A stretch of DNA of 64,000 nucleotides, from NCBI GenBank assembly GCA_046726415.1, contig JBKPAK010000213.1, positions 1-64,000 on the forward strand, in the 5' to 3' direction. Shown piece after piece: positions 48,674-63,999 of the stretch. The notes under the pieces were generated by a model, which worked only from the letters and a program-made list of their open reading frames with translations, was not told where the DNA came from and ran no database searches. This DNA is from Candidatus Methylomirabilota bacterium. Its GTDB lineage: Bacteria > Methylomirabilota > Methylomirabilia > Rokubacteriales > CSP1-6. Numbering within the stretch: the stretch's first letter is position 1; every line of letters begins with the position of its first letter. Position numbers and translations under genes: made by a program.

Positions 48674-48701
48674 TAGCCGGACGAGATCGGCGCCGAGGCA
48701 G

Positions 48702-49661
48702 TCAGGCGGCAGGTTCGATGCGTACCACTTCCGCGCTGTAGAGGCGCCACCCGTCTCTGCCACCCCGCCACTGTTGCTGAACGACGGCCAGGCCACCTGG
48801 TCCCTTGAAGGCCAGCTTGACCATTCGGTACTCGCCGATCTTAGCCACCGCGACAATCTTGGACCCGGACAGGGGCGGAGGGAGCTTGACGTATTCGGCG
48901 CGCACCTGCTCGCGCGCCCCCACCACCACCTGCTCCGCGGCGGCCTCGCCATCGCCGTTCTCGACGGCCTGGCAGTGGCGGTCGATCGCCTCCACCAGAT
49001 CGCCGGGGAGGTCGGGCCGGGCGAAGATGTTGCCAAGCGCGATGACGTCATCGTGGGCCCGCGGGTGCTCGGTGGGCCGGGAGGCAACGATCGGTGCGTC
49101 GCCGGTAACTCCACCGGCCTCGCCTAGCATCGCCAGTAACCGCGAGCTCCATGCCTCGACGCGCTCAGAGGTGACGGGATCTCGGGTGAGGGCTTCGAGC
49201 ACGATGTGCCCGGCCGCCACGTGCCGCCGTTCTTCCTCGAGGCACCGTTCGAGGATGCGCCGGGTGGGCGGTTCGTACACCGGATTCGCGCGGTCCAGGT
49301 GACGCTGGTAGGCGGAAACGAGATGGGGCTTCAGCACGCGATACATCGCGGTCAGGCGCTCCGGCGTCTGCGCGTACCGTTCACACCCCTCCAGCAGCTC
49401 CATGAAGCGAACCACGGTCGCGTTGGCCGGTTCGGATTGCTGGGCGGCCGCGCGCAGCTCGGGCAGGCGCCGGCCCCACTGGTCGGTGTGTTGCGCGCAA
49501 TCCCAGACGTGGCGGCCGAAAAGTAGCTTGGCGGGCAGCTCAGGAGTCAGCGCGATCCAGCCCCCCATGATCCGCATCATTCGCTCCTCGACATAGCGAT
49601 AGCGGCGGACGAGGGAGGCCGAGGTGTTCACGGAGAAGTGGCCGGCGAGCCGGTCCGGCAT
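48702..49661 (-). CDS. ferritin-like domain protein with extra C-terminal domain
   Basis: ATG 49661 overlaps the upstream stop; helical protein with YVEE, WDCAQH and LEEERRH ligand-like motifs. Confidence 0.72.
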   Translation of the reverse strand: MPDRLAGHFSVNTSASLVRRYRYVEERMMRIMGGWIALTPELPAKLLFGRHVWDCAQHTDQWGRRLPELRAAAQQSEPANATVVRFMELLEGCERYAQTPERLTAMYRVLKPHLVSAYQRHLDRANPVYEPPTRRILERCLEEERRHVAAGHIVLEALTRDPVTSERVEAWSSRLLAMLGEAGGVTGDAPIVASRPTEHPRAHDDVIALGNIFARPDLPGDLVEAIDRHCQAVENGDGEAAAEQVVVGAREQVRAEYVKLPPPLSGSKIVAVAKIGEYRMVKLAFKGPGGLAVVQQQWRGGRDGWRLYSAEVVRIEPAA

Positions 49662-50416
49662 CAGTAGACGGGCGAGCGCTGCGTGGTCCTGATGAGGCGA
49701 TCGATCTCCTCGTCGGTGAAGCCGGCGAGCTTGCGGGCGTCCTTGGCGATGGAGATCTGCACCTCCTCGTGGCCGCCATCCTGACGGACGCCGCCGAGAT
49801 TGAAGCGCTCGTCGATGGACTCCTGGAACTCGATGGCCCGGCGCCGGCGCTCCGGATCGCCCTCGGTGAGCTTGTTGAGCCACTTGGAGCCCATGCGCAC
49901 GTGGGTGATCTCGTCGGCCAGCACGAAGTCCACCGCTTTCTCGATGATGGGATCGCCGATCTTGGCCGCTATGTGGATCAGCTGGTTGAAGACGTCGCAG
50001 GCGAGCCCCTCCAGGCCGCGATTCACACCGGCCACGCGGGCCGCCGCGTCTTCCGCACAGGCACATCGCCACAGGAGCGTCGACTCTGGAAATTCGCCCA
50101 CGTAGCCGCCAAGATGCTCGAGGAGCCCGAGGTAGATCTCCACGTGGCGGGACTCGTCCCAGACCTGTCGCGCCATGTCCAGGGTGAACTCCCACGGCGC
50201 ATCGGGGAAATCGCAGACCGTGCGCCCTGCTCCTTCCATGGCTTGCAATTCACCCACCAGGATGCCGTGCACGCGCTCTCGCATCGACGCCCGACTGGCG
50301 AGATCCGGAAACGGTGGCAGCCCCTGGTCGATCCTCAGGGTCGCCGTGTCCCGTGCGCGCATTCGCACAAATCGGTCCTCGCGGGCGAGCTTGTCATAGG
50401 CGATCGGCCGCTCCAT
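49661..50416 (-). CDS. ferritin-like di-iron protein (DUF455-like)
   Basis: GELQAME, WDESRH, LEGLACD, ADEITH: complete E/ExxH/E/ExxH pattern. Confidence 0.85.
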   Translation of the reverse strand: MERPIAYDKLAREDRFVRMRARDTATLRIDQGLPPFPDLASRASMRERVHGILVGELQAMEGAGRTVCDFPDAPWEFTLDMARQVWDESRHVEIYLGLLEHLGGYVGEFPESTLLWRCACAEDAAARVAGVNRGLEGLACDVFNQLIHIAAKIGDPIIEKAVDFVLADEITHVRMGSKWLNKLTEGDPERRRRAIEFQESIDERFNLGGVRQDGGHEEVQISIAKDARKLAGFTDEEIDRLIRTTQRSPVY

Positions 50417-50453
50417 AGGTAGGCCTCCGGCAAGACTGAACCGCTGTTCATTG

Positions 50454-50482
50454 AGTGTAATCGAAGCGCGCGGGGGAGGCAA
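50454..50482 (-). promoter_or_regulatory. sigma70-type promoter for the ferritin-like/carboxylase operon
   Basis: TTGCCT-17 nt-TACACT on the minus strand. Confidence 0.6.
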
Positions 50483-50529
50483 CGCGCGGTTCACCCGGTG
50501 ATCCTGCTGACGCGCCATGCCGGGAAGTG

Positions 50530-51738
50530 TCACTCCGAGTGTCGCCTCGATGGGGCTGTCGGGACTTGGTCTGCGTGGTCGAGCAGGGACGCCGGCCGGA
50601 CCGCACCATCCCCGAAGCGCCGGGTCAGCCCGTCGACCACGCGCGCCAGACGCTCTCGGCGAACGGCGTTGACGTCGAGCAAGGAGAGCTGTCCCTGTCC
50701 TTCCGCAACCAACTGGGAGGCCGACACGCCAATCAACCGGGCCGGCTGGGACAGCTCGATGCGTTCGAGGAGAATGGCGGCGCGGCGATAGATCTCGAGA
50801 CCGTCCTGCGTGGGCTCGGCGGTCCAGCTCCGGGTCAGCGTGTGGAAGTCCGCGAAGCGCAACTTGAGCGTGACGCAGGATGCCGCGACGCCCCCGCGGC
50901 GAAGCTCAGCGCTCACCCGCTCCGCCTGCGCCCGTAGAGCGGCGCCGAGCCGGCGGAGATCACGGCAGTCGCGACTGAACGTCTCCTCGGCCCCCATCGA
51001 CTTGGCCGACCCCTCGGGAGCGACGCGGCGAGGGTCGAGGCCGAACGCGAGGCGATGCAGGTGCTCGCCAAGGGCACCGAATCGGCGCATCAAGGGCTCA
51101 CGAGGCAAGGCCTGCAACTGACCGATGGTCCTCAGGCCGAGGGTGTGCAGTTCTCTGGTCGTGACACCGCCCGCCCCCCACAGCCGTTCCACCGGCAACG
51201 GGGCCAAGAAGCGGGCTTCATCGCCGGCCGGTACCACCACGAGACCGTCGGGTTTCCGTAGATCGGAGGCCACCTTGGCCACAAACTTGTTGGAGGCGAG
51301 CCCAGCCGAGGCCGTGAGGCCCACCTCGGTCAGGATTCGGCCCTTGATCTGCCGGATCGCCTCGATGGGCGCCCCGAACAGCGACCCCGTGCCGGTGAGA
51401 TCGATGAACGCCTCGTCGACGGAGATTTGCTCCACCAGCGGTGAGAACTCCGCGAGGATCGCCATGATCCGGGTGGAAACGCGCTGGTACTTCTCCATGT
51501 CTACAGGAAGGAATACGGCGTGGGGGCAGAGGCGCGCGGCACGGCTGATCGGCATGGCCGAGCGCACGCCAAATGGGCGGGCCTCGTACGAGGCGGCCGA
51601 CACGACGCCGCGCCCGCGCGGGTCGCCGCCCACGATCACCGGACGCCCGCGCAGGTCTGGGCGATCCCGCTGCTCGACCGCCGCGTAGAAGGCGTCCATG
51701 TCGACGTGGGCGATCGAGGACGCGCGGCCTGTGCGCAT
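50530..51738 (-). CDS. dinB: DNA polymerase IV
   Basis: HVDMDAFYAAVE, ASYEAR.FGV.SAM, SVDEAF, AKVASDLRKPDG. Confidence 0.95.
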   Translation of the reverse strand: MRTGRASSIAHVDMDAFYAAVEQRDRPDLRGRPVIVGGDPRGRGVVSAASYEARPFGVRSAMPISRAARLCPHAVFLPVDMEKYQRVSTRIMAILAEFSPLVEQISVDEAFIDLTGTGSLFGAPIEAIRQIKGRILTEVGLTASAGLASNKFVAKVASDLRKPDGLVVVPAGDEARFLAPLPVERLWGAGGVTTRELHTLGLRTIGQLQALPREPLMRRFGALGEHLHRLAFGLDPRRVAPEGSAKSMGAEETFSRDCRDLRRLGAALRAQAERVSAELRRGGVAASCVTLKLRFADFHTLTRSWTAEPTQDGLEIYRRAAILLERIELSQPARLIGVSASQLVAEGQGQLSLLDVNAVRRERLARVVDGLTRRFGDGAVRPASLLDHADQVPTAPSRRHSE

Positions 51739-51748
51739 CCGCGGATGC

Positions 51749-52414
51749 TCAGTCGAGTCTCTCGGCCTCGCTGAGCCGGCGCAACGCATCCACCTCCTGT
51801 TCGAGCACCTGAATGCGGTCGAGGAGGTGTTCAATGGCCTTGGCCACCGGATCTGGAAGATCGGTCTGGTTCAGGTCGATGCCCGACGTCACCCGTTGAC
51901 CGTCGCGGTAGGTCACCTTGCCCGGAACTCCGACGACCACGGCGTTCGCTGGCACGTCCCGTACCACCACCGAACCGGCGCCAATGCGACTATTGTCACC
52001 CACCGTGATGGCGCCGAGCACCGTGGCCCCGGCACCCACGACCACGTTGTTGCCCAAGGTCGGGTGTCGCTTCCCCCGCTCGAGGCTGGTACCTCCCAAC
52101 GTCACGCCGTGGAGCAGGCTGACGTTCTCCCCCACCTCGGCCGTCTCGCCGATCACGACGCCCATGCCGTGATCGATGAAGAGGCCAGGCCCCAGGCGTG
52201 CCGCCGGATGGATCTCGATCCCCGTCAGGAATCGCGCCAGATGCGAGGTGAAGCGCGCCAGCCCGAGCCATCCGCCCGTCCACAGGCGATGAGCCAGACG
52301 GTGGAAGGTGAGGACGTGGACGCCCGGATAGCAGAGCAGCACTTCGAGGCGGGATCGCGCGGCGGGATCCCGCTCCAGGACGACCTGAATGTCGCGACGG
52401 AGGGAGTCAAACAT
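51749..52414 (-). CDS. cysE: serine O-acetyltransferase
   Basis: [35 protein letters not shown]. Confidence 0.96.
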
Positions 52415-52787
52415 GGCTTTCCTGGCGCCTCATGTAGTCTCGGGCGGCGGCCCGCAGGGCCTCTGCCACCACATCGGCCGCGTGCTTGCGGTCCTCCGGG
52501 AGGCCGTCCAGGGCCTCCTCGATGGCCACGGCCGATAGATGAGCGAGCGCCTCCACCGTGTATCCCGCGACCAGCTCGCTGGCCGCACTGGCCGCGGCGA
52601 TGGTTGGACCGCACCCGTAAGTCTGAAACCGCACTTCCGAGAGGCGGCCGTCGCGCACGCGGAGGAAGAAGCGCGCGAGATCGCCGCAGCCCTCGTATTC
52701 CTGCTGCCCCACGGCATCGGGCCCGCGCATGAGCCCAGCGTTGCGGGGGTGCAGGAAATGATCGACCAAGGTGGGGCTGTACCTCAT
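52407..52787 (-). CDS. IscU/NifU-N-like protein with only two of three scaffold cysteines
   Basis: YS..VDHF.HPRN.G, GCGD, TYGCG present; LPEDRKHAA replaces LPPVKIHCS. Confidence 0.88.
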
Positions 52788-53938
52788 ACGGCGGCCGGCA
52801 GGGCCTCCCGCAACTTGGCGACCAGAGGTTCCGCGCAGTCGATGACGTACTCGATATCCTCGGCCGCCGTGGTTCGGCCGAGGGAGCACCGCACCGCTCC
52901 GATGGCCCAGTCGAGCGGCACGCCCATGGCCTGGAGCACGTACGAGGGTTCGACGTTGCCCGAGGTGCACGCGGAGCCAGCCGACACGGCGACGCCCTTG
53001 AGATCGAGCCCCAAGACGATCGACTCGGACTCCACGTGACGGAAGCTGACGTTGGCAGTCCCGGGCAGCCGCTCGACCGGATGCCCGTTCAGCCGTACCT
53101 CGGGGACGCGGGCACGGAGGCCCTCCCAGAGCCGGTCGCGCAGCGCGCGCAACCGCTCTGTTTCACTGGTCATATCGCGGGCGCGGACCTCGACCGCCTT
53201 GCCAAAACCCGCGATGCCCGCCACGTTCTCGGTGCCGGCTCGCCGGCGACGCTCGTGCTCGCCACCGTGCTGAACCGAGACCATCTTCGTGCCGCGCCGG
53301 ATGTAGAGAGCGGCGACGCCTTTGGGCCCGTAAATCTTGTGCGCAGAGCACGACAACACGTCGATGCCCCAGCCGTCGAGGTCGATGGGGATCTTGGCGA
53401 ACGTCTGCACGGCGTCCACGTGGAAGGGGACGCCGTGATTTCGGGCGAGAACGCCGATCGCCGCGACGGGCTGGATCGTCCCCACCTCGCTGTTGGCGTG
53501 CATCACGCTGATGGCGATGGTGTCGGGCCGGAGCGCTCGCTTGACGTCGTCGGGATCGATCATCCCGTAGCCGTCCACCGGCAGATATGTCACCTCGAAC
53601 CCGGCCGCCTCCAGCGCTTGACAGGTGCGCAGAACCGCGTGGTGTTCAACGCGCGAGGTGATTAGGTGGCCCTTGCCCTTGGCCCCGGCCAGCCCTTTGA
53701 CGGCAAGGTTGTCGGATTCCGTTCCGCCCGACGTGAAGACGATCTCTTCTGGACGCGCGCCCAGGAAGCGGGCCACCCGTTCGCGGGCGGTCTCCAGCCC
53801 TTCTCGCGCTTCGCGCCCGAAGGCGTGCACGCTCGACGGGTTGCCGAAGCGTTCCATCAAGTACGGCAGCATCTCGGCCGCGACCTCCGGATGGACGGGC
53901 GTCGATGCGTTGTGATCCAAGTACACTCGACGGCTCAT
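52784..53938 (-). CDS. cysteine desulfurase (NifS/IscS group I, catalytically intact)
   Basis: YLDHNAST, SGGTESDN, EHHAV, HVDAVQ, SAHKIYGPKG, SAGSACTS. Confidence 0.95.
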   Translation of the reverse strand: MSRRVYLDHNASTPVHPEVAAEMLPYLMERFGNPSSVHAFGREAREGLETARERVARFLGARPEEIVFTSGGTESDNLAVKGLAGAKGKGHLITSRVEHHAVLRTCQALEAAGFEVTYLPVDGYGMIDPDDVKRALRPDTIAISVMHANSEVGTIQPVAAIGVLARNHGVPFHVDAVQTFAKIPIDLDGWGIDVLSCSAHKIYGPKGVAALYIRRGTKMVSVQHGGEHERRRRAGTENVAGIAGFGKAVEVRARDMTSETERLRALRDRLWEGLRARVPEVRLNGHPVERLPGTANVSFRHVESESIVLGLDLKGVAVSAGSACTSGNVEPSYVLQAMGVPLDWAIGAVRCSLGRTTAAEDIEYVIDCAEPLVAKLREALPAAV

Positions 53939-53942
53939 GAGC

Positions 53943-53971
53943 TTGCTCTCCCTCGATCCCGATGCTAGGCT
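53943..53971. promoter_or_regulatory. overlapping divergent promoter candidates (dsrEFH-like on +, desulfurase on -)
   Basis: + strand TTGCTC-17 nt-TAGGCT with extended TG; the overlapping - strand reads TAGCAT upstream of a GAGGGAG RBS. Confidence 0.5.
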
Positions 53972-53979
53972 CGGCCCGG

Positions 53980-54303
53980 ATGGATCTCGCCCGGAAAAAG
54001 TTCGGCCTCCTGCTCTCGACCGGACCTGAGCACGGAAATCTCGACACCGCCATCGGCCTCACCGCGGCGGCTCTGGGTCGCGGGGCGACCGTCTACCTCT
54101 ACCTCATCGACGACGGCGTGGCGACTCTGTCCGACCCTCGCCTTCGCGCGCTGCCTGCGCGCGGAGTGAAGCTCTTCGCGTGCGCCTACGGTTGCCAGAA
54201 GCGCCGGATCCCGCTCGAAGACAGTGACGAGATCACCTACTGCGGTCTGGTGGTGCTGACGGATCTCATCAACGGCACCGACCGCTTCGTCGCGCTCAAC
54301 TGA
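53980..54303 (+). CDS. DsrE/TusD-like sulfurtransferase
   Basis: VYLYLIDDGV, LFACAYGCQKR (Cys at the TusD/DsrE active position). Confidence 0.85.
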   Translation: MDLARKKFGLLLSTGPEHGNLDTAIGLTAAALGRGATVYLYLIDDGVATLSDPRLRALPARGVKLFACAYGCQKRRIPLEDSDEITYCGLVVLTDLINGTDRFVALN

Positions 54304-54336
54304 AACAGCACCGACCGCTTCGTCGCGCTCAACTGA
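54271..54336 (+). repeat. 33-bp tandem duplication of the dsrE-like 3' end including the stop
   Basis: aacggcaccgaccgcttcgtcgcgctcaactga / aacagcaccgaccgcttcgtcgcgctcaactga (32/33 identical). Confidence 0.95.
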
Positions 54337-54355
54337 GCGCCCTCGCGGCGCGCGC

Positions 54356-54712
54356 GTGACCGACCACGCCCCCGTGCTCGTGCTGATCTCCGCCGATCCA
54401 CGAGAGTCGCATCGCGCCAACGAGGCCCTGCGCATCGGGCTCGGAATCGTCTCGGGCGAAAACGAGGTGGTCTTCGTCCTCAGCGGCGCGGGGGTCCACC
54501 TCCTCGACGCCGACACCGACGACCTCGTCGATGGCGACGACATCGCGCGTTTTCGCGCCAGTCTCAAGGCCCTCGATGTCTCCTTCCACGTCGAATCGGA
54601 ATCCCGACCATCCGATCCCGACTGGAACGCCGCCAACCACCCGGTGGTCGTCCAGCCGGGGAGCGCCATCGTCGACCTCCTCCGGACCAGCCGCCGGGCG
54701 CTGATCTTCTGA
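54356..54712 (+). CDS. DsrF/TusC-like protein
   Basis: DP..SHRANEALRIGLG, VFVLSGAGV; no Cys. Confidence 0.75.
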   Translation: MTDHAPVLVLISADPRESHRANEALRIGLGIVSGENEVVFVLSGAGVHLLDADTDDLVDGDDIARFRASLKALDVSFHVESESRPSDPDWNAANHPVVVQPGSAIVDLLRTSRRALIF

Positions 54713-54933
54713 TGGCGTCCGTTCTTCATCTTCTGGGCCACAACAATCCTGCGCGCGCTCTGGTGGTGATGGAGGGCCAGGTGGCGGCCGGCGACACGGT
54801 GACGGTCGCCGTGGTGGGACCGCGGGCCCCGGCGCTCCCGCCCGGGGTGACCGCGTTCCGTGTGCCGGGGGACAAGTCGTGGGAGGAGCTCCTGGACGTT
54901 ATCTTCGGGGCCGACCAGGTGCTTAGCTGGTGA
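54712..54933 (+). CDS. DsrH/TusB-like small protein
   Basis: VLHLL N-terminus, WEELLDVIF..DQVLSW C-terminus; TGATG coupling to the preceding gene. Confidence 0.65.
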   Translation: MASVLHLLGHNNPARALVVMEGQVAAGDTVTVAVVGPRAPALPPGVTAFRVPGDKSWEELLDVIFGADQVLSW

Positions 54934-55039
54934 CCGCTGGGAACCTCGACGCGGGCCTCGACCGTCCCCTTCGAGCATTCCCCGAGGCGAGATGGCACAG
55001 GCCAGGCCGACGCCCGAAACGGGGTCATCCCGCACGCTC

Positions 55040-55240
55040 CTAGCGGTTCCGATACTCGTCGAGCCAAGCCATCTGGATCGACTCCAGGAGCTTTTCGTTC
55101 GATCCCTTCGGATCATCGGAGAACTCGGGCAGTTCCGTCACCCAGCGGTGGAGGTCCGTGAAGCGCACGGTGACCGGATCCAGTTCGGGAAAGCGCTCGG
55201 CCAGGGCGATGCCGATGTCTTCCGCGTCGCGCCACGTCAC
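55040..55240 (-). CDS. iscX: Fe-S assembly protein IscX
   Basis: TWRDAEDIGIAL, DP..VRFTDLHRWV..LPEFSDDP..SNEKLLE.I..AW. Confidence 0.93.
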   Translation of the reverse strand: MTWRDAEDIGIALAERFPELDPVTVRFTDLHRWVTELPEFSDDPKGSNEKLLESIQMAWLDEYRNR

Positions 55241-55560
55241 TTGGGAATCTCCACCGTCACGTTGCCTCGCACCACGGCCTGACAGCCGAGGCGCGAGTGG
55301 ATGGTCAGCCCTTCGGCCATGTCCAGCCGATCCTCCTCGTCGGGCTCCATCTCCGAAAGGTTCTCCTCGCCACTCCGGACGATCACATGGCAGGTGGTGC
55401 ACGCGCAGCTGCCGCCGCAGTTGTGCTCGAGGTGGATGTCACGGGCGAGGGCGATGTCGAGCAGCGAGCCCGGCTTGCCATGGTCGGCCAGCGGGTACTT
55501 GTCGTCATCGACCTCGACGGTCACGTTGGCCGGGAGAAACGTCACCTTGTACACTGCCAT
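55237..55560 (-). CDS. fdx: ISC-type [2Fe-2S] ferredoxin
   Basis: HNCGGSCACTTCH, SRLGCQ. Confidence 0.93.
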   Translation of the reverse strand: MAVYKVTFLPANVTVEVDDDKYPLADHGKPGSLLDIALARDIHLEHNCGGSCACTTCHVIVRSGEENLSEMEPDEEDRLDMAEGLTIHSRLGCQAVVRGNVTVEIPK

Positions 55561-57392
55561 CACGATGACTCCATGACCTCGTCGGCCCGTCGGCTGCCCA
55601 GCGCCCCCTTGAGGGCCGCATCCATCATGGTCTCCGCCAAGCGCGTCGTCACCTGGTTCAGCGCGGTGGTCTTATCGCGGATGAGATCGCGGTCGGCCCC
55701 CCCACGCGCCCGGCGCAGCTCATCAAGCGCACCCGCGATCGCCTCGCGCTCCGGCGCCGTGGCCAGGGTGCCCGCCTGACGGAGAGCGCGCTCGACGTGT
55801 GTCATCACCGTGTCCGCCTCGGTGCGCGCCTCGATCAGGAGGCGCGCCTCCACATCGGCTTCGGCGTAGGTGAAGGACTCCTCCACCATGCGCGCGACGT
55901 CGACCTCCGAGAGCCCGTACGTCGGGCGCACCTCGATGGCGGCCGCCTCGCCCGTGCGCAGCTCGCGGGCCGTGACTTGGAGGATGCCGTTGGCGTCGAT
56001 GAGAAACGTCATCTCGATCTTCGGCATGCCCGCCGGCATGGGGTCGATTCCTCGCAGCTCGAACCGGGCCAGCGAACGGCAGTCCTTGGCCAGCTCGCGC
56101 TCTCCTTGCACGACGTGGAGGTCGACCACGGTCTGCCCGTCTACCGAGGTCGTGAACAGCTCCTTGGCGCTGGTGGGGATCGTGGTATTGCGCGGGATCA
56201 GCACGCTGACAATGCCGCCCAGCGTCTCGATGCCGAGCGAGAGCGGCGTCACGTCCAGGAGCAACAGATGATCGATTCCACCGGCCAGGATGTGGGCCTG
56301 GACGGCAGCCCCCAGCGCCACCACCTCGTCGGGATTGATCTGACTATGAGGCGCCCGGCCAAACAGCTCCTCTACGCGCCGCCGCACCATGGGCACCCGT
56401 GTGGAGCCCCCCACCAGCACGACCTCGTCGATCTCCGCCGGCTCGATTCCCGCATCGGCGAGGGCCGCTCGGCATGGACCGAGCGTTCGCATCACCAGCG
56501 GCTCGATGAGCCCCTCCAGCTCGGCCCGGGTCAGCTCCCGGTGATACACGAACGTCTCGAAGGGAATGGTCACCGACGTCCGATCCAGTGCCGACAGTCG
56601 GACTTTGGCGGCCTCGGCGGCCAGGCGCAGTTCCTGAACTGACTCCGCGTCCCCGGCGAGGTCGACGCCGTGCCGGGCGCGGATCTCGTCGAGAAAGACG
56701 GTTTGCAGGGCCCGGTCGAGGTCGTCGCCTCCCAGGTGCGTGTCGCCATTGGTCGCCAGCACCTCGAAGATTCCGTCTTTGACGCGGAGGATCGAGATGT
56801 CGAACGTCCCGCCCCCGAGGTCGTACACGGCGATCAGACCATGGGAGAGCCGCTGGAGGCCGTAGGCGAGCGATGCCGCCGTTGGCTCGTTGACGATGCG
56901 AACCACGTCCAAGCCGGCGATGCGGCCGGCATCGCGCGTGGCCTGGCGTTGGCTGTCGTTGAAGTACGCGGGCACCGTCACCACGGCGTGCTCGGCAGGC
57001 TCGCCGAGGTGCCTCGCCGCGCGGTCCTTGAGGGCTCTCAGAATCACGGCCGAGACCTCGGGCGGCGTCACCGCTCGATTTCCGACGACCAGCCGAACCA
57101 GGCCCTCCCCGGGGACCACCGTGAACGGGAAGTACTGCAGCTCCTCGCGCACGTCGTCGACACCGCGGCCCATGAACCGCTTGACCGAATAGACAGTGTG
57201 ACCAGCCCGATGCACCAGCTCCCGCTTCGCCGCATCTCCGACCAGGATGCCATCGGGCGTGAATGACACCACCGACGGAAGTAGCGGCCGCCCGTCGGCA
57301 TCGGGAATGACCCGGGGCAGGCCCGTGGCCTCGTCGACGTAGGCCACCAAGCTGTTGGTGGTTCCCAGATCAATGCCGATGATGCGCGACAT
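55560..57392 (-). CDS. hscA: Fe-S assembly chaperone HscA (Hsp70)
   Basis: GIDLGTTNS, TVPAYF, NEPTAA, DLGGGTFD, PTYGL; located in the isc operon. Confidence 0.92.
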   Translation of the reverse strand: MSRIIGIDLGTTNSLVAYVDEATGLPRVIPDADGRPLLPSVVSFTPDGILVGDAAKRELVHRAGHTVYSVKRFMGRGVDDVREELQYFPFTVVPGEGLVRLVVGNRAVTPPEVSAVILRALKDRAARHLGEPAEHAVVTVPAYFNDSQRQATRDAGRIAGLDVVRIVNEPTAASLAYGLQRLSHGLIAVYDLGGGTFDISILRVKDGIFEVLATNGDTHLGGDDLDRALQTVFLDEIRARHGVDLAGDAESVQELRLAAEAAKVRLSALDRTSVTIPFETFVYHRELTRAELEGLIEPLVMRTLGPCRAALADAGIEPAEIDEVVLVGGSTRVPMVRRRVEELFGRAPHSQINPDEVVALGAAVQAHILAGGIDHLLLLDVTPLSLGIETLGGIVSVLIPRNTTIPTSAKELFTTSVDGQTVVDLHVVQGERELAKDCRSLARFELRGIDPMPAGMPKIEMTFLIDANGILQVTARELRTGEAAAIEVRPTYGLSEVDVARMVEESFTYAEADVEARLLIEARTEADTVMTHVERALRQAGTLATAPEREAIAGALDELRRARGGADRDLIRDKTTALNQVTTRLAETMMDAALKGALGSRRADEVMESS

Positions 57393-57978
57393 GTGTCTGC
57401 CGTCCCTCGTCCAGGACTTGAGTGAGGTCATCGATCACTGTCCGCAGGTAGGTGCGCGTCGCCAATGTTTCCTTGAGGGCGGCGAGGGCCCGAGGGCGTT
57501 CGCCAGGAGCCGAGATGTCCCAGGCCTCCGACAAGGGCCCTCGCAGACGTCCCTCCTCCGCGCGATACCGGATCTCGAGCTGCTCGCGTCGCTCTTGCAG
57601 AGCGGCGCGTCCGGTTGCGTCCAGGCCGCCCGCGCGGGCCTCCTGGAGCGCCTCCTGGATCTCGAACATTTCCGCCAGCAGCCCCGCGGGCGGCTTCGGC
57701 CTTGCCGCTCCCGCGTCCTCGATCTCCCGCCCCTCCAGGAGCCGCACGAGATATTCGATTCGCCGGATGGGATCGCGGAGGGCCCGATAGGCGGCATTGA
57801 CCCGAGCCGACGTCTTCAGAATCTGCGCCTGCTCCTCGGGCGACGCCCCCTGGTGGAAGTCAGGGTGGTAGCGGCGCGACAACTCGTAGAAGTTTCGCTG
57901 AAGCGCGGTCTCGTCCACCATCAACCGCCGCGGTAGTCCAAAGACCTCGAAGTAGTCCATGCCCTTTTCGTCGACCAT
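57370..57978 (-). CDS. hscB: Fe-S co-chaperone HscB
   Basis: DYFEVFGL, YHPD, VNAAYRALRDP..RIEYL. Confidence 0.92.
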   Translation of the reverse strand: MVDEKGMDYFEVFGLPRRLMVDETALQRNFYELSRRYHPDFHQGASPEEQAQILKTSARVNAAYRALRDPIRRIEYLVRLLEGREIEDAGAARPKPPAGLLAEMFEIQEALQEARAGGLDATGRAALQERREQLEIRYRAEEGRLRGPLSEAWDISAPGERPRALAALKETLATRTYLRTVIDDLTQVLDEGRQTHVAHHRH

Positions 57979-57987
57979 CAGAAATGG

Positions 57988-58015
57988 GAACGGGCCCGTG
58001 GGGCCGGGCCCGTTC
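57988..58015. other. perfect 11-bp stem-loop between iscA and hscB
   Basis: gaacgggcccg-tggggc-cgggcccgttc. Confidence 0.7.
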
Positions 58016-58036
58016 GCGCGGCGCGCTGTCGCCCCG

Positions 58037-58366
58037 CTACGCTGAGAACGACGTCCCGCAGCCGCAGCTCGACTTCGCGCTGGGATTGACAAAGGTGAAG
58101 CCGCCCGTCAGCCCCTGCGTCACGTAGTCGAGGGTCGTCCCGTTCAGGTAGAGATAGCTCTTGCGGTCGACCACGACCTTCACCCCGTCGATCTCGAACT
58201 CCTTGTCGTGGGGCCCGATCTCGGAGTCGAACTCCAGGGCGTACGACAAGCCGGAACAGCCGCCTCCCTTCACGCCCATGCGGAGGAAAACGGTATCGGG
58301 CAGGTTCTGCGACTGTTTGAGGCTCTTCAGCTGCTTCACGGCAGCCTCCGAGAGCGCCACGGGCAT
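58037..58366 (-). CDS. iscA: A-type Fe-S carrier IscA
   Basis: GGGCSGLSY, NP....CGCGTSF. Confidence 0.95.
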   Translation of the reverse strand: MPVALSEAAVKQLKSLKQSQNLPDTVFLRMGVKGGGCSGLSYALEFDSEIGPHDKEFEIDGVKVVVDRKSYLYLNGTTLDYVTQGLTGGFTFVNPSAKSSCGCGTSFSA

Positions 58367-58392
58367 GGGTAATATCCTCCTTGCCTACTCTT

Positions 58393-58809
58393 CTAAGATG
58401 CGACCCCCGCCTCGGTCGTTGCCGGTTTCGCGTGCTTCTCTCGGTAGTCGGTCAGGGCGGCCTTGATGGCGTCCTCGGCAAGGACCGAGCAGTGAATCTT
58501 GACGGGCGGCAGCTTCAGCTCATTCACGATGTCCGTGTTCTTGATCTTGCCGGCCTCATCGACGGTCTTACCCTTCAGCCACTCGGTGGCCAAGCTCGAG
58601 GAGGCGATGGCGCTGCCACAGCCGAACGTCTTGAACTTGGCGTCTTCGATGACGCCCGTGTCGAGATTGACCTTGATCTGCAGCTTCATGACGTCGCCGC
58701 ACTCAGGCGCGCCCACCAGCCCGGTACCCACGCCCGGAGCGTCCTTGGTGAAGGACCCGACGTTGCGGGGGTTGTTGTAGTGATCAACGACCTTCTCGCT
58801 ATAGGCCAT
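58393..58809 (-). CDS. iscU: Fe-S scaffold IscU
   Basis: NPRNVG, GAPECGD, FGCGSAIASSS, LPPVKIHCS. Confidence 0.97.
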   Translation of the reverse strand: MAYSEKVVDHYNNPRNVGSFTKDAPGVGTGLVGAPECGDVMKLQIKVNLDTGVIEDAKFKTFGCGSAIASSSLATEWLKGKTVDEAGKIKNTDIVNELKLPPVKIHCSVLAEDAIKAALTDYREKHAKPATTEAGVAS

Positions 58810-58823
58810 GACTCGCGCCTCCC

Positions 58824-60050
58824 TTACTCAGCTTTCCAATGAATCGACTTCAGATCAACGCCCTCCTTGGCCAGCTCGTAGAGGGGCGACATTTCGCGCA
58901 GCCGCTGCACGACCTCGATCGTCCGCTTGGCCACGTAGTCGATCTCCTCGTCGGTGTTGAACCGGTGGAGGCTGAAGCGGATCGAGGAGTGGGCCAGCTC
59001 GGTGCTCGCCCCCAGGGCCGCGATGACATAGGAAGGCTCCAAGGTCGAGGATGTGCAGGCCGACCCCGACGACAGCGCCGTCTCTTTGTTGAGCCCCATG
59101 AGCACCGACTCCCCTTCGACATAGGCGAAGGAGATGTTCAGGTTGTGGGGCAACCGTCGCTCCGGGTGCCCGTTCAGAAAGGCCTCTTCCACGTTGGACA
59201 GGATGCAATCTTGTAGTCTGTCGCGCAGCGCGGCCAACCGCGATCCTTCCGTCGACATGACCTCGCGGCAGATCTCCGCCGCCCGGCCGAATCCGACAAT
59301 CAACGGGACGGGCAGTGTCCCCGAGCGCATCCCGCGCTCGTGACCGCCCCCGTCGATGAGGGGCGCGATGCGCACGCGCGGAGCTTTGCGGCGCACATAG
59401 AGAGCACCGATGCCTTTCGGACCGTACAGCAGATGTCCCGTGCACGACAGGAGGTCGATGCCCATACCCTCGACGCTCACGGGAACTTTGCCAACCGCCT
59501 GGGTGGCATCGGTGTGGAAGATGATCCCCTTCTCTTTGGCCAGCTTCCCGATGGCGGCGATATCCTGGATCGTCCCGATCTCGTTGTTGGCAAACATGAC
59601 CGAGATCAGGATCGTCTTGTCGTTGATCGCCTTGCGAATCTCGTCCACGTCGACCAGGCCGTCGGGTTGAACAGGGACGTAGGTCACCGCCGCCCCGTGT
59701 CGCTCGAGTCGCCGGCACACGTCGAGGCCGGCCCGCTGCTCGATGACCGTGGTGACGATGTGATTGCCCTTCTCCCGGTACATCTCGACCACGCCCTTGA
59801 TAGCGAGGTTGATGGCCTCCGTTCCACCAGAGGTGAAGACGATCTCCTTGGGATCCCGAGCGCCGATGAGCGCCGCGATTTGCTCGCGCGCCCGGTCCAC
59901 CGCGGCTTCGGCCTCCCAGCCGAACGGATGGTTGCGGCTGGCTGGATGGCCGAACTTCTCCGTGAAGTACGGGATCATCGCCTCGACCACCCGCGGGTCA
60001 ACCGGGGTCGTCGACTGCGCGTCCATGAAGAGCGGAAACTTCAGCGCCAT
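58824..60050 (-). CDS. iscS: IscS homolog lacking the PLP lysine (probable pseudo-desulfurase)
   Basis: Full-length IscS with SSGSACTS, RSGT and LREMSPLYE, but TGHLLYGPKG in place of SGHKxYGPKG and EQRAG in place of EHKAV. Confidence 0.9.
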   Translation of the reverse strand: MALKFPLFMDAQSTTPVDPRVVEAMIPYFTEKFGHPASRNHPFGWEAEAAVDRAREQIAALIGARDPKEIVFTSGGTEAINLAIKGVVEMYREKGNHIVTTVIEQRAGLDVCRRLERHGAAVTYVPVQPDGLVDVDEIRKAINDKTILISVMFANNEIGTIQDIAAIGKLAKEKGIIFHTDATQAVGKVPVSVEGMGIDLLSCTGHLLYGPKGIGALYVRRKAPRVRIAPLIDGGGHERGMRSGTLPVPLIVGFGRAAEICREVMSTEGSRLAALRDRLQDCILSNVEEAFLNGHPERRLPHNLNISFAYVEGESVLMGLNKETALSSGSACTSSTLEPSYVIAALGASTELAHSSIRFSLHRFNTDEEIDYVAKRTIEVVQRLREMSPLYELAKEGVDLKSIHWKAE

Positions 60051-60499
60051 CGGTCGGTCTCCCTCACCCCCGCAATCGACAGCATTTCGGGGACGTCGTC
60101 ACTCGTCAACTCGGCCAAACTCATGCTGTCCAGCATCTGCGTCATGGCTGCTTGCAGCTTTTGCACGGGGCGCCGGAGATTGCAATGCGAGAGCTGCGGG
60201 CAATCGCTTGCTTCTTCCATGCAGCTCACGATGCGCACGGGCCCCTCCAGCGCGCGGATCACATCACCCACCGTGATCTGGGTCGGGCGCTGGGCCAGGA
60301 CGTACCCCCCCTTGGGGCCGTTCTGGCCGCTGATCAACCCGCGCTTGGCCAGACGCTGCAGGATCTTCGCGAGCAATTCCGCCGGGATATGAAACTGTTC
60401 GGCAATCCGTTTGGCGCTTACGGGCGCGAGTGCCTCGTGGATGGCGATATAATGAATCGCCATCAATCCGTAGTCGGCGCGCTTGGTAAAGCGGAGCAT
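60041..60499 (-). CDS. iscR: Rrf2 family regulator (IscR-like, three Cys)
   Basis: GPKGGYVL, ALEGP, C-X6-C-X5-C; heads the isc operon. Confidence 0.85.
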   Translation of the reverse strand: MLRFTKRADYGLMAIHYIAIHEALAPVSAKRIAEQFHIPAELLAKILQRLAKRGLISGQNGPKGGYVLAQRPTQITVGDVIRALEGPVRIVSCMEEASDCPQLSHCNLRRPVQKLQAAMTQMLDSMSLAELTSDDVPEMLSIAGVRETDRWR

Positions 60500-60572
60500 T
60501 TATGAACCCTTACGCTCGTCCGTCCACGGTCGCCCAAGCATTTGCCTCGCCCGCGGGGGGGCGCGTATGCCT

Positions 60573-60622
60573 ATCGCCGACCATTTCGGTCGTATTCTTG
60601 CACCGCCACCGACAGGAGTCAA
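60573..60622 (-). promoter_or_regulatory. isc promoter with overlapping IscR/Rrf2-type operator
   Basis: TTGACT-17 nt-AAGAAT on the minus strand; adjacent palindrome CGACC-ATTTC-GGTCG (60578-60592). Confidence 0.65.
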
Positions 60623-60638
60623 CAGGAAAAGGGTTCCC

Positions 60639-61901
60639 ATGACCTCAACTCCCGAGTTCGAGTCGAACCTTTATCACACGGCGATCGCTCAACTCGAGAG
60701 CGTGGCAGGCCGAATCGGGCTGGATTCGGACACCCTCGAGAGGCTCCGCTTGCCGAGGAGGGCTCTCGTCGTTTCCGTCCCCATCCGCATGGATAACGGC
60801 GAGACCCACGTCTTCATGGGCTATCGGGTCCACCACAACACCGCGCTCGGCCCGACGAAGGGGGGCCTCCGCTACGATCTCGAGGTGAACCTGGGTGAGG
60901 TGACGGCACTCGCGATGCTCATGACCTGGAAGTGCGCGCTCATGGGCCTGCCCTACGGCGGCGCCAAGGGCGGCGTCCGCTGCAATCCCAGGACCCTCTC
61001 CCTGCGGGAACGCGAGAATCTGACGCGGCGCTACACCGCCGAGGTGATCCTCCTCATCGGCCCCGATCTCGACATTCCTGCGCCCGACCTCGGCACCGAC
61101 GAGCAAACCATGGCGTGGGTCATGGACACTTACTCGATGACGCAGGGGAGGAGCGTCCCGGGCGTGGTCACGGGAAAGCCCCTGATCGTGGGCGGGTCAG
61201 CCGGTCGAAAAGAAGCGACCGGCCGGGGCATCGTGTATGTGCTCTACCAGGCGGCCAAGCGGCTCGGCCAGGAATTGCGCGGGCGCCGGGTGGCCGTCCA
61301 GGGGTTCGGGAACGTCGGCTCCGTCGCCGCCCGGCTCCTCTGGCGAGACGGGGTGCTGATCACCGGTGTGAGCGACGTCAAGGGAGCCATCTGGAACGAG
61401 CGCGGAATCGATCTGCCCAGCCTGGAGGCTTACATCGCCGAGGCCAGGACCGTCACTGGGTTTCCAGGAGCCGACACCCTCACGAACGCCGAGTTGCTCG
61501 AGCAACCCTGCGACGTGCTGATCCCGGCCGCCGTCGGCTCCCAGATCCACCAAAACAACGCCGCGCGGATCCGCGCCAGCATCGTGGCGGAAGGCGCCAA
61601 CGGACCCACGACCCCCGAGGGGGATCGGATCCTCCGTGAGCGCGGGGTCACCGTGATCCCCGACATCCTCGCCAATGCCGGTGGCGTCGTCGTCTCTTAT
61701 TTCGAGTGGGTCCAGGGACTCCAGTACTATTTCTGGCGCGAGACCGAGATCATCGCGCGGCTGCAAGAAGTGATGACCCGCGCGTTCAACCGCGTGTGGG
61801 CCAGTGCCTCCAAGGAAGGGGTCGATCTTCGCACGGCGGCCCTCATGGAAGGGGTCCGGAGGGTCGCCGAAGCCCACAAGGTGCGCGGACTCTATCCCTG
61901 A
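60639..61901 (+). CDS. Glu/Leu/Phe/Val dehydrogenase (glutamate dehydrogenase-like)
   Basis: GPTKGGLRY, MTWK, GGAKGG, DIPAPD, QGFGNVG, EGANGP, NAGGVVVSYFEW. Confidence 0.94.
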   Translation: MTSTPEFESNLYHTAIAQLESVAGRIGLDSDTLERLRLPRRALVVSVPIRMDNGETHVFMGYRVHHNTALGPTKGGLRYDLEVNLGEVTALAMLMTWKCALMGLPYGGAKGGVRCNPRTLSLRERENLTRRYTAEVILLIGPDLDIPAPDLGTDEQTMAWVMDTYSMTQGRSVPGVVTGKPLIVGGSAGRKEATGRGIVYVLYQAAKRLGQELRGRRVAVQGFGNVGSVAARLLWRDGVLITGVSDVKGAIWNERGIDLPSLEAYIAEARTVTGFPGADTLTNAELLEQPCDVLIPAAVGSQIHQNNAARIRASIVAEGANGPTTPEGDRILRERGVTVIPDILANAGGVVVSYFEWVQGLQYYFWRETEIIARLQEVMTRAFNRVWASASKEGVDLRTAALMEGVRRVAEAHKVRGLYP

Positions 61902-62908
61902 GGCGTGGCCAGGCTCGACGGCAGAGTCGCCCAGGCCTCCCGCAGCGCGGCGGCCGCCGTTTCCGGAGGCAACTCGTTGACGTAGATCCCCCCCACGCGG
62001 TTGATCCGCTCGAGATGCGTAATCACCTCGATGTGCCAGTGATAGTCGTCGTGGATGGTCGCCCAGTCGTCCTTCATCACACGCGACCTTTGATTCGGCG
62101 CGTTGTGGATGACCATCTCGTAGCTGGGATCGCCGAAACTTGCGGCGAGGGCGCGGAAGAGCGCGGACAGGAGGCGGGCGAGATCGCCCACCACCTCCGG
62201 ATCGACGGCGTCCTCGAAGGAACAGCCGTGTCGGCGGGGCATGATCCACGTCTCGAGTGGCGTGCGAGCGGCATAGGGAACGAGGGCGGCGAAGAACCTC
62301 GTGACATGCACCACCCGCTCCTCAGCGGCTAGCTCCTGCCGGAGGATGTCGCAGTAGAGGCACCGGCGCTTGTACTGGTAGTACTCCCGCGCTTCGCGAA
62401 GCTCTCGGCGACCGGCGTCGAACACGATCGGAATGGCCGACACCCGCGAATATGGGTGATGCGGACCCACCCCGGGTTTGCGGTGATGCCGGGAGATGAG
62501 GATGTCGCGGATCTGATCGTCGCGCTTGAGGTCCACGATGCGATCTCGATACATCCACAGGATCGACTCGAGATGCTCGGGAGCCATCGAGGCCAGGGTG
62601 TCGTCGTGACGTGGCGACTCGATGATGAGTTCGCTCGCCCCTCGCGGAGTGATGACGTCGAACATTCCCAATCCTTCCCGCACGAGCTCCCACTCGATGC
62701 GGAAGTAGGGATCGCGCTCGGCCACGACCCGTACGGTCCACCCCGGAGCGTTGGGCGGAGAATCGTCCCCGCGGTAGGCGGCGATCTCTGGACCAGAGAG
62801 GTGCTCGGCGCCGGGACAGTAGAAGCAGTCACTCTCGAGAGGTGGCTTGGACGACGGCCGGACCAGGACCCAGCGTCCACCCGTCGTATCCTTCCTCAGC
62901 TCATCCAC
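61892..62908 (-). CDS. GalT-like (HIT superfamily) protein with degenerate active site
   Basis: ELRKD....WV, CFYCPG, ELIIESPRH, CLYCDI, YHWHIE, PE.AA..LR; HHPYSR in place of HPHSQ. Confidence 0.85.
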   Translation of the reverse strand: MDELRKDTTGGRWVLVRPSSKPPLESDCFYCPGAEHLSGPEIAAYRGDDSPPNAPGWTVRVVAERDPYFRIEWELVREGLGMFDVITPRGASELIIESPRHDDTLASMAPEHLESILWMYRDRIVDLKRDDQIRDILISRHHRKPGVGPHHPYSRVSAIPIVFDAGRRELREAREYYQYKRRCLYCDILRQELAAEERVVHVTRFFAALVPYAARTPLETWIMPRRHGCSFEDAVDPEVVGDLARLLSALFRALAASFGDPSYEMVIHNAPNQRSRVMKDDWATIHDDYHWHIEVITHLERINRVGGIYVNELPPETAAAALREAWATLPSSLATPQG

Positions 62909-62919
62909 CTGCCGTCGAT

Positions 62920-63999
62920 CTACTCCTTGATCTGGCCCTTCAGCTTCCGGAGGTGCTGGCGCGCCACGTCGACCCAGTCCTTCTCCGAAGGAAGCTGCGA
63001 CGCCAGGGCGATGTATTTCTCCCACTGGACGATCGACTCCTTGGGATCGACCTTCTCGTACACCAGGGCGAGATTGTAGAGAGCCCCGGTGTGCTTGGCA
63101 TCGAGCTCGATGACTTTCTTGTATTCGTCGATGGCCTCGCGGTAGAGCCCTTTGTCCTCGTAGACCTCGCCGAGTCCCATTCGCGCTTCAACCGAATGCG
63201 GATCGAGATCGATCGCCTTCTTGTAGGCCGTGACGGACTCGTAGTAGAGGCCTTTCTCACTGTAATAGATCTTTCCGAGACTCATGTAGACCCGCGGATT
63301 GGCGGGGTTGTAGACCAGCGCCTTCTGGTAGGCGCTGACGGCTCCGTCGACTTCCCCCTTCGCGGCCCGCGCGTCGCCCAGCCCCACGTGAGCGTCGGCG
63401 TAGAACGGGCGCAGCTCGATCGCTTTGCCATAAGCCTCCACCGCCTGATCGAACAGCCGGCGAGGCGCGGCCAGAAACAGGTCGCCCAGCGCCTTCATCG
63501 GCTCGGGGTACGTGGGGTCGAGCTGGGCGGCCGCTCGAAACTGGGCGGACGCCTTCCAGCGGTTGTTCAGGGTTTGATGGACGCTCCCCAGGGTGTACTG
63601 CCCCACCGCGAATGTCGGATCTGCCTCGATGGCTTTCGTCAGGAGCTCGACCGCCGCTTCATTGCCTTCCTGGTTCCCCCGCTGGGCCGCCACCACGCCG
63701 CGTGCGAAGAATTCGAACGCCCGAGCGGATTGGGTCGGGCGCGATGCCCTCTCCATGCGGGCGGCCTCAGCGTCGGTCAAGGTGACCTTCAGGGTGCGCG
63801 CATAGGTCACCGGCAGGGTGGCGAGACGCCCGAACGACTCCCCTTCCTGGAGCGTGATGGGTTCCAGAGTGACGAAGTCGGGACCACTAGCCTTCATCTC
63901 GAGCAGACGTGGCTGAATGACAAGGTCGTTGCCTCTACGCGCGATCTGGCCGAAGAGCGCGGCATCTGCCTTGACGGCCTTGGCCGCTTGAACGACTGC
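62920..63999 (-). CDS. tetratricopeptide repeat protein (N-terminus off the right edge)
   Basis: Many TPR motifs (AHVGLGD, VYMSLG, ARMGLG, ALYNLA); the frame is open to the window edge. Confidence 0.88.
   Translation of the reverse strand, partial: AVVQAAKAVKADAALFGQIARRGNDLVIQPRLLEMKASGPDFVTLEPITLQEGESFGRLATLPVTYARTLKVTLTDAEAARMERASRPTQSARAFEFFARGVVAAQRGNQEGNEAAVELLTKAIEADPTFAVGQYTLGSVHQTLNNRWKASAQFRAAAQLDPTYPEPMKALGDLFLAAPRRLFDQAVEAYGKAIELRPFYADAHVGLGDARAAKGEVDGAVSAYQKALVYNPANPRVYMSLGKIYYSEKGLYYESVTAYKKAIDLDPHSVEARMGLGEVYEDKGLYREAIDEYKKVIELDAKHTGALYNLALVYEKVDPKESIVQWEKYIALASQLPSEKDWVDVARQHLRKLKGQIKE

Follow-up and report, generated by a model that had tools for sequence, protein, structure and literature searches.

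A complete isc operon of Rokubacteriales with an IscS that lacks the cofactor lysine, flanked by an intact NifS-like desulfurase and DsrE/F/H-like genes

IscS is regarded as the master sulfur-mobilising hub of the bacterial iron-sulfur cluster (ISC) pathway, and its lysine 206 (E. coli numbering) is the residue that covalently links the cofactor pyridoxal 5'-phosphate (PLP). The stretch of DNA analysed here (64,000 nucleotides, positions 1 to 64,000 of contig JBKPAK010000213.1 of a Candidatus Methylomirabilota bacterium of the order Rokubacteriales; referred to below as the window) carries a full isc operon whose iscS gene (58824-60050, - strand) encodes an IscS ortholog without this lysine. 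Next to it lie the gene of a second, intact desulfurase and three small genes resembling dsrE, dsrF and dsrH. The locus raises the question what such an IscS does in a complete ISC operon, and from where the sulfur is obtained. The source is a metagenome-assembled genome (MAG) of 7.6 Mb in 352 contigs, which is 98% complete and 4.66% contaminated.

The window IscS scored 609.2 bits on NF010611 (cut-off 548) and 596.4 bits on TIGR02006, under the cut-off of the latter (643.2). Its residues were read against E. coli IscS (1p3w; E value 1e-149, aligned residues 3-406). The position of E. coli K206 is occupied by Leu207 of the window protein (codon CTG, 59430-59432; 'GH-L-LYGPKG' versus 'GH-K-IYGPKG'), and the position of E. 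coli H104 by Gln105 (59736-59738; 'IE-Q-RA' versus 'TE-H-KA'). The first-pass annotation of the window had described an isc operon with a canonical IscU and a PLP-defective IscS, which was borne out, with leucine for K206 and also glutamine for H104; the second exchange had been missed there. The cysteine of the mobile loop is kept (Cys332, E. coli C328; 59055-59057, 'SGSACTS') and the C-terminal tail aligns with the tail of E. coli IscS. Engineered E. coli IscS proteins with H104Q, Q183E or K206A are each without desulfurase activity (PMC9978102). Judged by these E. coli mutants, the Lys-less IscS is almost certainly not a desulfurase.

The residues of the IscS ortholog were read across 60 other genomes of Rokubacteriales. 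In the family of the window (f1), 32 of 36 other genomes contained an ortholog, and all 32, like the window, had Gln104 with Leu or Met at position 206; this count covers 33 of the 158 f1 genomes and becomes 30 of 30 plus the window when two genomes flagged as unpublished (G011, G025) are left out. The remaining four f1 genomes (G006, G012, G016 and G023; 79-95% complete) gave no IscS-level match. The single f5 genome was Lys-less too. The lysine was kept in 17 of 17 f4 genomes with an ortholog, and likewise in the single f2 and f3 genomes. Counted as distinct sequences, the Rokubacteriales set consisted of 35 sequences with Gln104/Leu206, 10 with Gln104/Met206, 10 with Gln104/Lys206, 8 with His104/Lys206 and one partial sequence with the lysine. 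His104/Lys206 was found in all 65 distinct sequences from Nitrospira, Acidobacteriota and other outgroups.

The same state was seen in a collection of 5.8 billion proteins, where the best 120 cluster representatives (86-99% identical) all had the Leu, the Gln and the loop Cys (120/120). When the best 150 representatives at 50% clustering were examined, the sites were covered by 136, of which 132 have His, Lys and Cys; the other four are the Rokubacteria cluster, a fragment that is Rokubacteria-like, an 'SSND' type and an Asn/Lys type. The 'SSND' representative (P0310) is 46% identical to the Lys-less IscS. A desulfurase look-alike of this type is also encoded in the genome of the window itself (G000:C21 (L006), 1383-2871, - strand); its PLP-site His-Lys is changed to Asn-Asp ('SSNDMYGPPG') and Q183 to Gly, it keeps the loop Cys, and its gene is located directly downstream of a TusA gene with a CPxP motif.

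The Lys-less IscS sequences group into one clade of an outgroup-rooted FastTree tree, and inside this clade Leu and Met switch several times. At IscS position 207, Lys is encoded by AAG, Met by ATG and Leu by CTG, CTC or TTG, which fits a path from Lys via Met to Leu, followed by synonymous drift. From these sequences, we take the lysine loss to be real, old and of a single origin. The sister genus g40 (L126-L131, L145 and L154-L156) has kept Lys206 and shows H104Q and Q183E in 10 of 10 sequences. Because g40 nests among His/Lys sequences, H104Q arose separately in this genus, and by the E. coli mutant data its IscS should be inactive too. That the active site eroded twice, independently, in a single order suggests that catalysis by IscS was already dispensable in the ancestor of the order.

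No relaxed constraint on the Lys-less IscS was seen in the IscS/HscA distance ratios of within-clade pairs. The mean amino-acid distance of IscS relative to that of HscA was 0.71 in the Lys-less clade (136 pairs) versus 0.80 in Lys-keeping Rokubacteriales (78 pairs), and the Lys-less IscS evolves more slowly than the nifS-like protein encoded beside it. The 45 Lys-less species sequences show no variation at T76, N155, D180, Q183, H205, T243, C328 and R354 (E. coli numbering), in the loop sequence 'SGSACTS' (present in the 120 cluster representatives as well) or in an arginine patch of R220, R223, R225 and R237. In E. coli, ferredoxin, IscX and CyaY dock at this basic patch. Only three IscS columns are specific to the clade (D/N/T80I, K117R and K207L/M; in the window, I80 is encoded at 59811-59813 and R117 at 59700-59702), and no compensating lysine or other clade-specific gain was found at any clade-specific column. 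The protein is thus clearly constrained over nearly its whole surface, even in the former cofactor pocket, and retains some role.

The best explanation, to which we give a probability of about 0.55, is that the Lys-less IscS is a non-catalytic scaffold and Cys donor for IscU, and that the sulfur comes from elsewhere, most likely from the adjacent nifS-like desulfurase. It would be a catalytically dead paralog-in-place, having neither the lysine that serves as Schiff base and general base nor the histidine that positions the substrate, and would be kept as the structural partner of IscU in an otherwise complete and working ISC machine. In this role it would be the docking partner of IscU, ferredoxin and IscX, and the invariant cysteine of its mobile loop would either carry a persulfide delivered in trans or, as in Archaeoglobus fulgidus, act as a ligand of the nascent cluster. 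The sulfur would be mobilised by the nifS-like desulfurase, which is coupled to cysE as a local cysteine supply, and a DsrE-like protein with three invariant cysteines is the candidate persulfide carrier between the two units. We infer the scaffold and ligand role by analogy with known systems, and the sulfur donor from adjacency.

Based on the open reading frame (ORF) listing and family scans of the window, three units were found at the locus. The first is the full iscRSUA-hscBA-fdx-iscX operon (- strand, 60499 down to 55040). The second consists of the nifS-like gene, an IscU-like gene, cysE and dinB (- strand, 53938 down to 50530), and the third of the three small DsrE/F/H-like genes (+ strand, 53962-54933), which are convergent with iscX and divergent from the nifS-like gene. 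Fifteen window proteins were mapped onto 35 Rokubacteriales loci, of which 31 reach past iscX; the loci were fetched by two routes and some may be of the same genome.

The nifS-like (MisS/NifS-type) desulfurase gene (52784-53938, - strand) scored 334.9 bits on NF002806 (cut-off 304) and 519.5 bits on TIGR03402, just under the cut-off of this NifS equivalog model (530.75). The active site of its product is intact, with H99, K201 (53336-53338) and C324 (52967-52969). The protein is 48% identical to the Lys-less IscS, measures 384 aa versus 408 aa and is without the IscS C-terminal tail. The ATG of the IscU/NifU-N-like gene (52407-52787, - strand; Pfam NifU_N, 2e-28) overlaps the stop codon of the nifS-like gene (ATGA), and the start of cysE (serine O-acetyltransferase; 51749-52414, - strand; TIGR01172 243.9 bits, cut-off 210.65) shares 8 nt with the end of the IscU-like gene. 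By this arrangement the nifS-like gene is predicted to be translationally coupled to the IscU-like gene and cysE. The gene for DNA polymerase IV, dinB (50530-51834, - strand; NF002751 392 bits, cut-off 371), is conserved as the next gene downstream and is probably outside the sulfur unit, since a gap of approximately 140-900 bp follows cysE in relatives.

The IscU-like protein keeps the Cys, Asp, Cys and His, and has Ala in place of Cys3 ('RKH-A-ADV' versus 'KMH-C-SNL' of 7c8m and 4eb5_C). On TIGR03419 it scored 108.8 bits, under the cut-off of 187.9. The Ala ('HAA') was found in all IscU-like orthologs, including those of Lys-keeping genomes. The intact desulfurase and the missing Cys3 had both been reported correctly for this unit in the first-pass annotation; the loss of the LPPVK motif that it also reported carries less weight than was stated, the closest solved relatives of the IscU-like protein having 'LPPQK'. 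The IscU-like gene is present in 26 of the 31 loci; those without it are 2 of the 18 Lys-less loci and 3 of the 13 in which IscS keeps the lysine. Its absence in 5 of 31 loci shows that it is dispensable for the function of the cluster. In the loci without it (L137 (G002), of the window's own genus, L052, L126, L129 and L131), cysE directly follows the nifS-like gene. The idea that the two desulfurase/scaffold pairs are defective in complementary ways is half right: the IscS defect stands, but the two-Cys IscU-like protein is older than that defect, and dispensable.

The first gene of the trio is DsrE/TusD-like (53962 or 53980 to 54303, + strand; Pfam DsrE 26.1 bits, cut-off 22.7). The AF2 model of its product (pLDDT 94.5) had 2hy5_A, the DsrE of DsrEFH, as top Foldseek match (E value 5e-7, TM 0.82), and the first 11 Foldseek rows were all DsrEFH, TusBCD, YchN or other DsrE-type or DsrE-like chains. 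It contains three invariant cysteines, C68 (54181-54183), C72 (54193-54195) and C88 (54241-54243; numbered from the 53980 start). In the model, the C-x3-C pair is predicted at a strand-helix junction, with C68 ending the strand 64-68 and C72 in the helix 69-74. DsrE and TusD have a single active cysteine (Cys78). The three invariant cysteines could form a dithiol/persulfide relay or bind a metal. The start codons of the nifS-like and dsrE-like genes are 23-41 bp apart in the window (approximately 20-140 bp in relatives), so that their promoters must overlap one another or extend into the coding regions, an arrangement that points to shared regulation.

The second and third genes are DsrF/TusC-like (54356-54712, + strand) and DsrH/TusB-like (54712-54933, + strand, 73 aa) by position, and neither product contains a cysteine. 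The former scored 18.4 bits on Pfam DsrE, under the cut-off, and 18 of 20 of its orthologs matched Pfam DsrE at 0.01 or better (best 4.3e-9). For the latter, none of 21 orthologs gave a Pfam or DsrH family match. The fold of its model (AF2, pLDDT 95) resembles the DsrE/F/H type. In a wide VIA-align search, 6 of the top 9 matches were DsrE/F-family chains (root-mean-square deviation 1.7-2.1 over 72-73 residues), at Z scores of 8.1-8.8, which are middling values that unrelated Rossmann-like folds reach as well. Foldseek gave nothing at E 0.001 or better for the 73-aa model, and DsrH (2hy5_C) came 15th (E 0.095). When profiles of the three trio alignments were searched against the sequences of solved structures, they found no DsrEFH or TusBCD (the best matches were unrelated, E 0.016 or worse), and a profile-profile comparison among the three proteins found nothing (probabilities of approximately 1%). 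The placement of a dsrE/F/H-like trio between the two other units, divergent from the second, was thus as first described, with the reservation that the third member is without a family match.

A profile of the DsrE-like protein gave a strong single match in 148 of 158 f1 genomes, in 20 of the 21 genomes of f4 and in the one genome each of f2, f3 and f5, so that the gene is single-copy and near-universal in the order. Of 68 genomes from the phylum's other families, 8 gave matches, all of them weak; four genomes flagged as unpublished are included in these tallies. The DsrH-like ORF follows the dsrF-like gene in 30 of 31 loci and is broken in one long-read assembly with other frameshifts. In L145 (G050:C13:46000-56500), a low-contig assembly, the nifS-like, dsrF-like and dsrH-like genes each lie in two frames, probably due to indel errors. 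Elsewhere in the genome of the window, a TusA gene is paired with a DsrE-family gene (G000:C24:54933-55462, - strand) approximately 22 kb from a Lys-containing NifS-like gene (C24:77855-79030).

The dsrE-like, dsrF-like and nifS-like genes were found in the same places in 31 of 31 loci, and an intact desulfurase with a cysteine-supply gene beside isc, as had been noticed in the window, was present in all 31 Rokubacteriales loci that were long enough. None of the 65 outgroup isc loci (Nitrospira, Acidobacteriota and others) had the flanking genes within 10 kb. The super-cluster is, by these comparisons, a hallmark of Rokubacteriales. The 15-gene layout also occurs with a Lys-keeping IscS and is therefore older than the lysine loss; the presence of the nifS-like gene before the loss explains how catalysis by IscS could decay twice. 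Co-occurrence, the check proposed in the first-pass annotation, consequently fails to single out the Lys-less IscS, as the same genes flank a Lys-keeping IscS in 13 loci.

Parts of the window are matched, at 0-5 mismatches, by contigs assembled from four RNA libraries of soil, which belong to three studies. The matches lie in the nifS-like gene (53099-53361, 0 mismatches), iscA-iscU (58184-58549, 0 mismatches), iscS (58872-59019 and 58829-58961, both with 0 mismatches; 59076-59346, 2 mismatches; and 59389-59620, spanning codon 207, 4 mismatches) and iscR (60059-60375, 5 mismatches). They give weak support for transcription. Ranking of expression by RNA-library depth was dropped, because 90-95% matches from other organisms dominate hscA and iscU. 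The runs that hold most of the window stretch are soil metagenomes.

Several observations weigh against the scaffold-and-donor explanation. The local support for the stem of the Lys-less clade is only 0.57. The same neighbourhood surrounds a Lys-keeping IscS in the sister family (13 loci), so that adjacency alone is no proof that the nifS-like enzyme feeds the ISC machine. The genome contains other possible donors, namely the SufS-SufU of a full SUF system (C221), another SufS (C199) and two further NifS-like proteins that contain the lysine (C24 and C235). TusE/DsrC (PF04358) gave 0 matches in the 98%-complete MAG, in which TusA is encoded on three contigs other than that of the window, and CyaY was not found in it either; with neither TusE/DsrC nor CyaY, a Tus-type relay would be incomplete. 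RNA libraries can hold DNA. Finally, all PLP-contacting residues except K206 and H104 are invariant in the Lys-less clade. E. coli IscS K206A still binds some PLP and traps intermediates (PMC9978102), so the pocket may hold a ligand and some unusual chemistry is possible. The invariance of the PLP pocket is unexplained by a pure scaffold role, and the Lys-less IscS may bind or sense a ligand.

The alternative that survives best is that the neighbours are independent: the Lys-less IscS and IscU would use free sulfide or sulfur from any cellular desulfurase, which has been put forward for A. fulgidus and for sulfide-rescued E. coli without iscS, and the flanking genes would serve another pathway such as tRNA or cofactor thiolation. 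That the flanking genes predate the lysine loss and also occur with a Lys-keeping IscS speaks for this alternative, and other desulfurases and the SUF system are at hand in the genome. The E-F-H order of the trio is that of tusDCB of tRNA thiolation, and MnmA is encoded in the genome. Free sulfide is a serious alternative as the sulfur source, since E. coli lacking iscS regains Fe-S assembly when H2S is supplied, with IscU being required (PMC13015791). However, independent neighbours do not account for a layout that is kept across the order (31/31) and found in 0 of 65 outgroup isc loci, nor for an active site that decayed twice, only in Rokubacteriales, which fits a local back-up donor. A Tus-type use of the trio is at odds with the lack of a TusE/DsrC match in the genome, and soil, the source of the runs, is not obviously a sulfidic habitat. 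We consider independence of the neighbours possible, but rather unlikely.

The explanation by a scaffold and an adjacent donor can be extended to a full relay, in which the nifS-like desulfurase with its own CysE passes sulfur via the DsrE-like protein to Cys332 of the Lys-less IscS and on to IscU, the two half-reactions of a desulfurase being split between paralogs. This extension is tentative and we regard it as unlikely in its entirety. No relay from a desulfurase to a pseudodesulfurase was found in the literature searched. The Lys-less IscS could additionally be a cysteine or PLP sensor by means of its invariant pocket.

It is improbable that the Lys-less IscS is still an enzyme, holding PLP or a PLP-cysteine adduct non-covalently for slow or different chemistry or for sensing of cysteine or PLP. 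The invariance of T76, N155, D180, Q183, H205, T243 and R354 in 45 of 45 sequences would agree with this, as would the partial PLP retention and trapped intermediates of E. coli K206A, but K206A and H104Q each abolish the activity of E. coli IscS (PMC9978102) and no new lysine occurs at the clade-specific columns. A heterodimer of the Lys-less IscS and the nifS-like protein, with one working site per dimer and the IscU-binding tail provided by IscS, is about as improbable. Both proteins have the class-V aminotransferase fold of a dimeric family, the nifS-like protein is without the IscS C-terminal tail, and T243, the residue that reaches into the active site of the partner, is kept in 45 of 45 sequences. 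However, the two genes belong to separate transcription units, the same pair is present where IscS keeps its lysine, and we know of no natural desulfurase heterodimer. A decaying gene or an assembly artefact, for which only the substitution itself speaks, is refuted by full-length orthologs that are 80-92% identical in 29 genomes, by unrelaxed constraint, by the same state in 120 of 120 independent cluster representatives and by several synonymous Leu codons. Chance and sequencing error were likewise rejected, given the recurrence throughout the family and the three different Leu codons.

The other genes of the isc operon, all on the - strand, are of the expected types. The iscU gene (58393-58809; TIGR01999 216.5 bits, cut-off 192.4) encodes a canonical scaffold in which all three Cys, the Asp, LPPVK and the His-Cys are kept. 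It is followed by iscA (A-type carrier; 58037-58366; TIGR00049 121 bits, cut-off 58.8), the hscB co-chaperone gene (approximately 57370-57960; TIGR00714 56.9 bits, cut-off 46.75), the start of which was inferred from the onset of the family match (residues 59-155 of a long ORF), and the hscA chaperone gene (55560-57431; TIGR01991 722 bits, cut-off 708.55). The fdx gene for an ISC-type [2Fe-2S] ferredoxin (55237-55563; Pfam Fer2 1.1e-10) matched the general family and scored 90.5 bits on TIGR02007, under the cut-off of 132.1. The last gene is iscX (55040-55240; TIGR03412 106.9 bits, cut-off 40.4). At the other end, iscR (60041-60499; Pfam Rrf2 E 1.1e-36; TIGR00738 119.7 bits, cut-off 73.3) encodes an Rrf2-family regulator that scores under the IscR equivalog cut-offs and fits the general Rrf2 family. 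A candidate isc promoter/operator (60578-60622, - strand) lies upstream of iscR and consists of TTGACT-17-AAGAAT followed by a short inverted repeat, which is a candidate IscR operator; the consensus scan found 2 promoter-like sites versus 0.7 expected. Divergent from iscR is an ORF that by eye resembles a Glu/Leu-type dehydrogenase, and such an ORF lies beside iscR in many relatives too. Further ORFs at 47327-50533 and 60636-63999 were, by eye, biotin-carboxylase-like, two ferritin-like/DUF-type, GalT-like and TPR ORFs.

Widespread soil bacteria that keep a whole ISC machine with the chemistry of IscS switched off would amount to a natural separation-of-function allele. Non-catalytic roles of IscS (docking platform, cluster ligand and persulfide arm) become testable in a bacterial, chaperone-containing system, beyond the minimal archaeal pair. 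The trio and the CysE-coupled desulfurase are candidates for supplying dead IscS-IscU pairs with sulfur, a question that has existed since the A. fulgidus work. For annotation the Lys-less proteins are a problem, as public records (NCBI and JGI) label them cysteine desulfurase, or 'IscS subfamily cysteine desulfurase'.

The literature searched (subscription papers and supplements lay outside the search) yielded neither a bacterial Lys-less IscS within a full ISC operon nor a convergent case, and it did not connect such an IscS with a DsrE/F/H-like trio. In the accessible text of a 2026 review, 'lysine' and 'DsrE' occur 0 times (PMC13066941). The view of the first-pass annotation that no such system had been described overlooked the archaea, where Lys-less IscS proteins are known from A. 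fulgidus and Methanosarcina acetivorans (IscS1; PMC7585200).

Each part of the locus has a counterpart among known systems. Like TusBCD (2d1p) and DsrEFH (2hy5), the trio consists of three adjacent small genes, of which the first two are of the Pfam DsrE type and the third is shorter with a similar fold, and the first member has a conserved Cys at a predicted strand-helix junction. Unlike these systems, it gave no sequence-profile match, the third protein is without a DsrH match, the DsrE-like protein has three Cys, and no TusE/DsrC was found in the genome. The second unit resembles MIS, defined as a two-gene NifS/NifU-like system (PMC13066941), in that a single-domain NifU-N/IscU-like gene comes directly after the nifS-like gene; the solved proteins that its product resembles best are archaeal (7c8m, 4eb5_C). 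It differs from MIS in the absence of Cys3 from the scaffold-like partner, which is itself lacking in 5 of 31 loci, and in the location of the pair in an operon with cysE.

The IscS of the IscS-IscU pair of A. fulgidus (4eb5, 4eb7, 4hvk) and IscS1 of M. acetivorans are, like the window IscS, without the lysine, keep the loop Cys and are located beside IscU. The A. fulgidus protein (Lys to Asp) is described as inactive and as ligating the [2Fe-2S] cluster of IscU with a Cys (PMC7585200). These archaeal systems consist of two genes, without chaperones, ferredoxin or IscX, and have Lys changed to Asp, whereas the window has a full operon with Lys changed to Leu or Met and His to Gln. The window IscS resembles the IscS of E. 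coli and of mitochondria (E value 1e-149) more than it does 4eb5_A (9e-105), and since the loss also maps inside Rokubacteriales, it is independent of the archaeal Lys-less proteins. With the ISC system of E. coli (1p3w, 3lvl) the window shares the gene set and gene order, and its IscS aligns end to end (3-406); it differs by the replacement of K206 and H104, by the lack of a detectable CyaY and by the flanking desulfurase unit and trio. The changes engineered in E. coli as H104Q, Q183E and K206A (PMC9978102) occur naturally in these bacteria, where they are fixed and combined, with Leu or Met instead of Ala at position 206.

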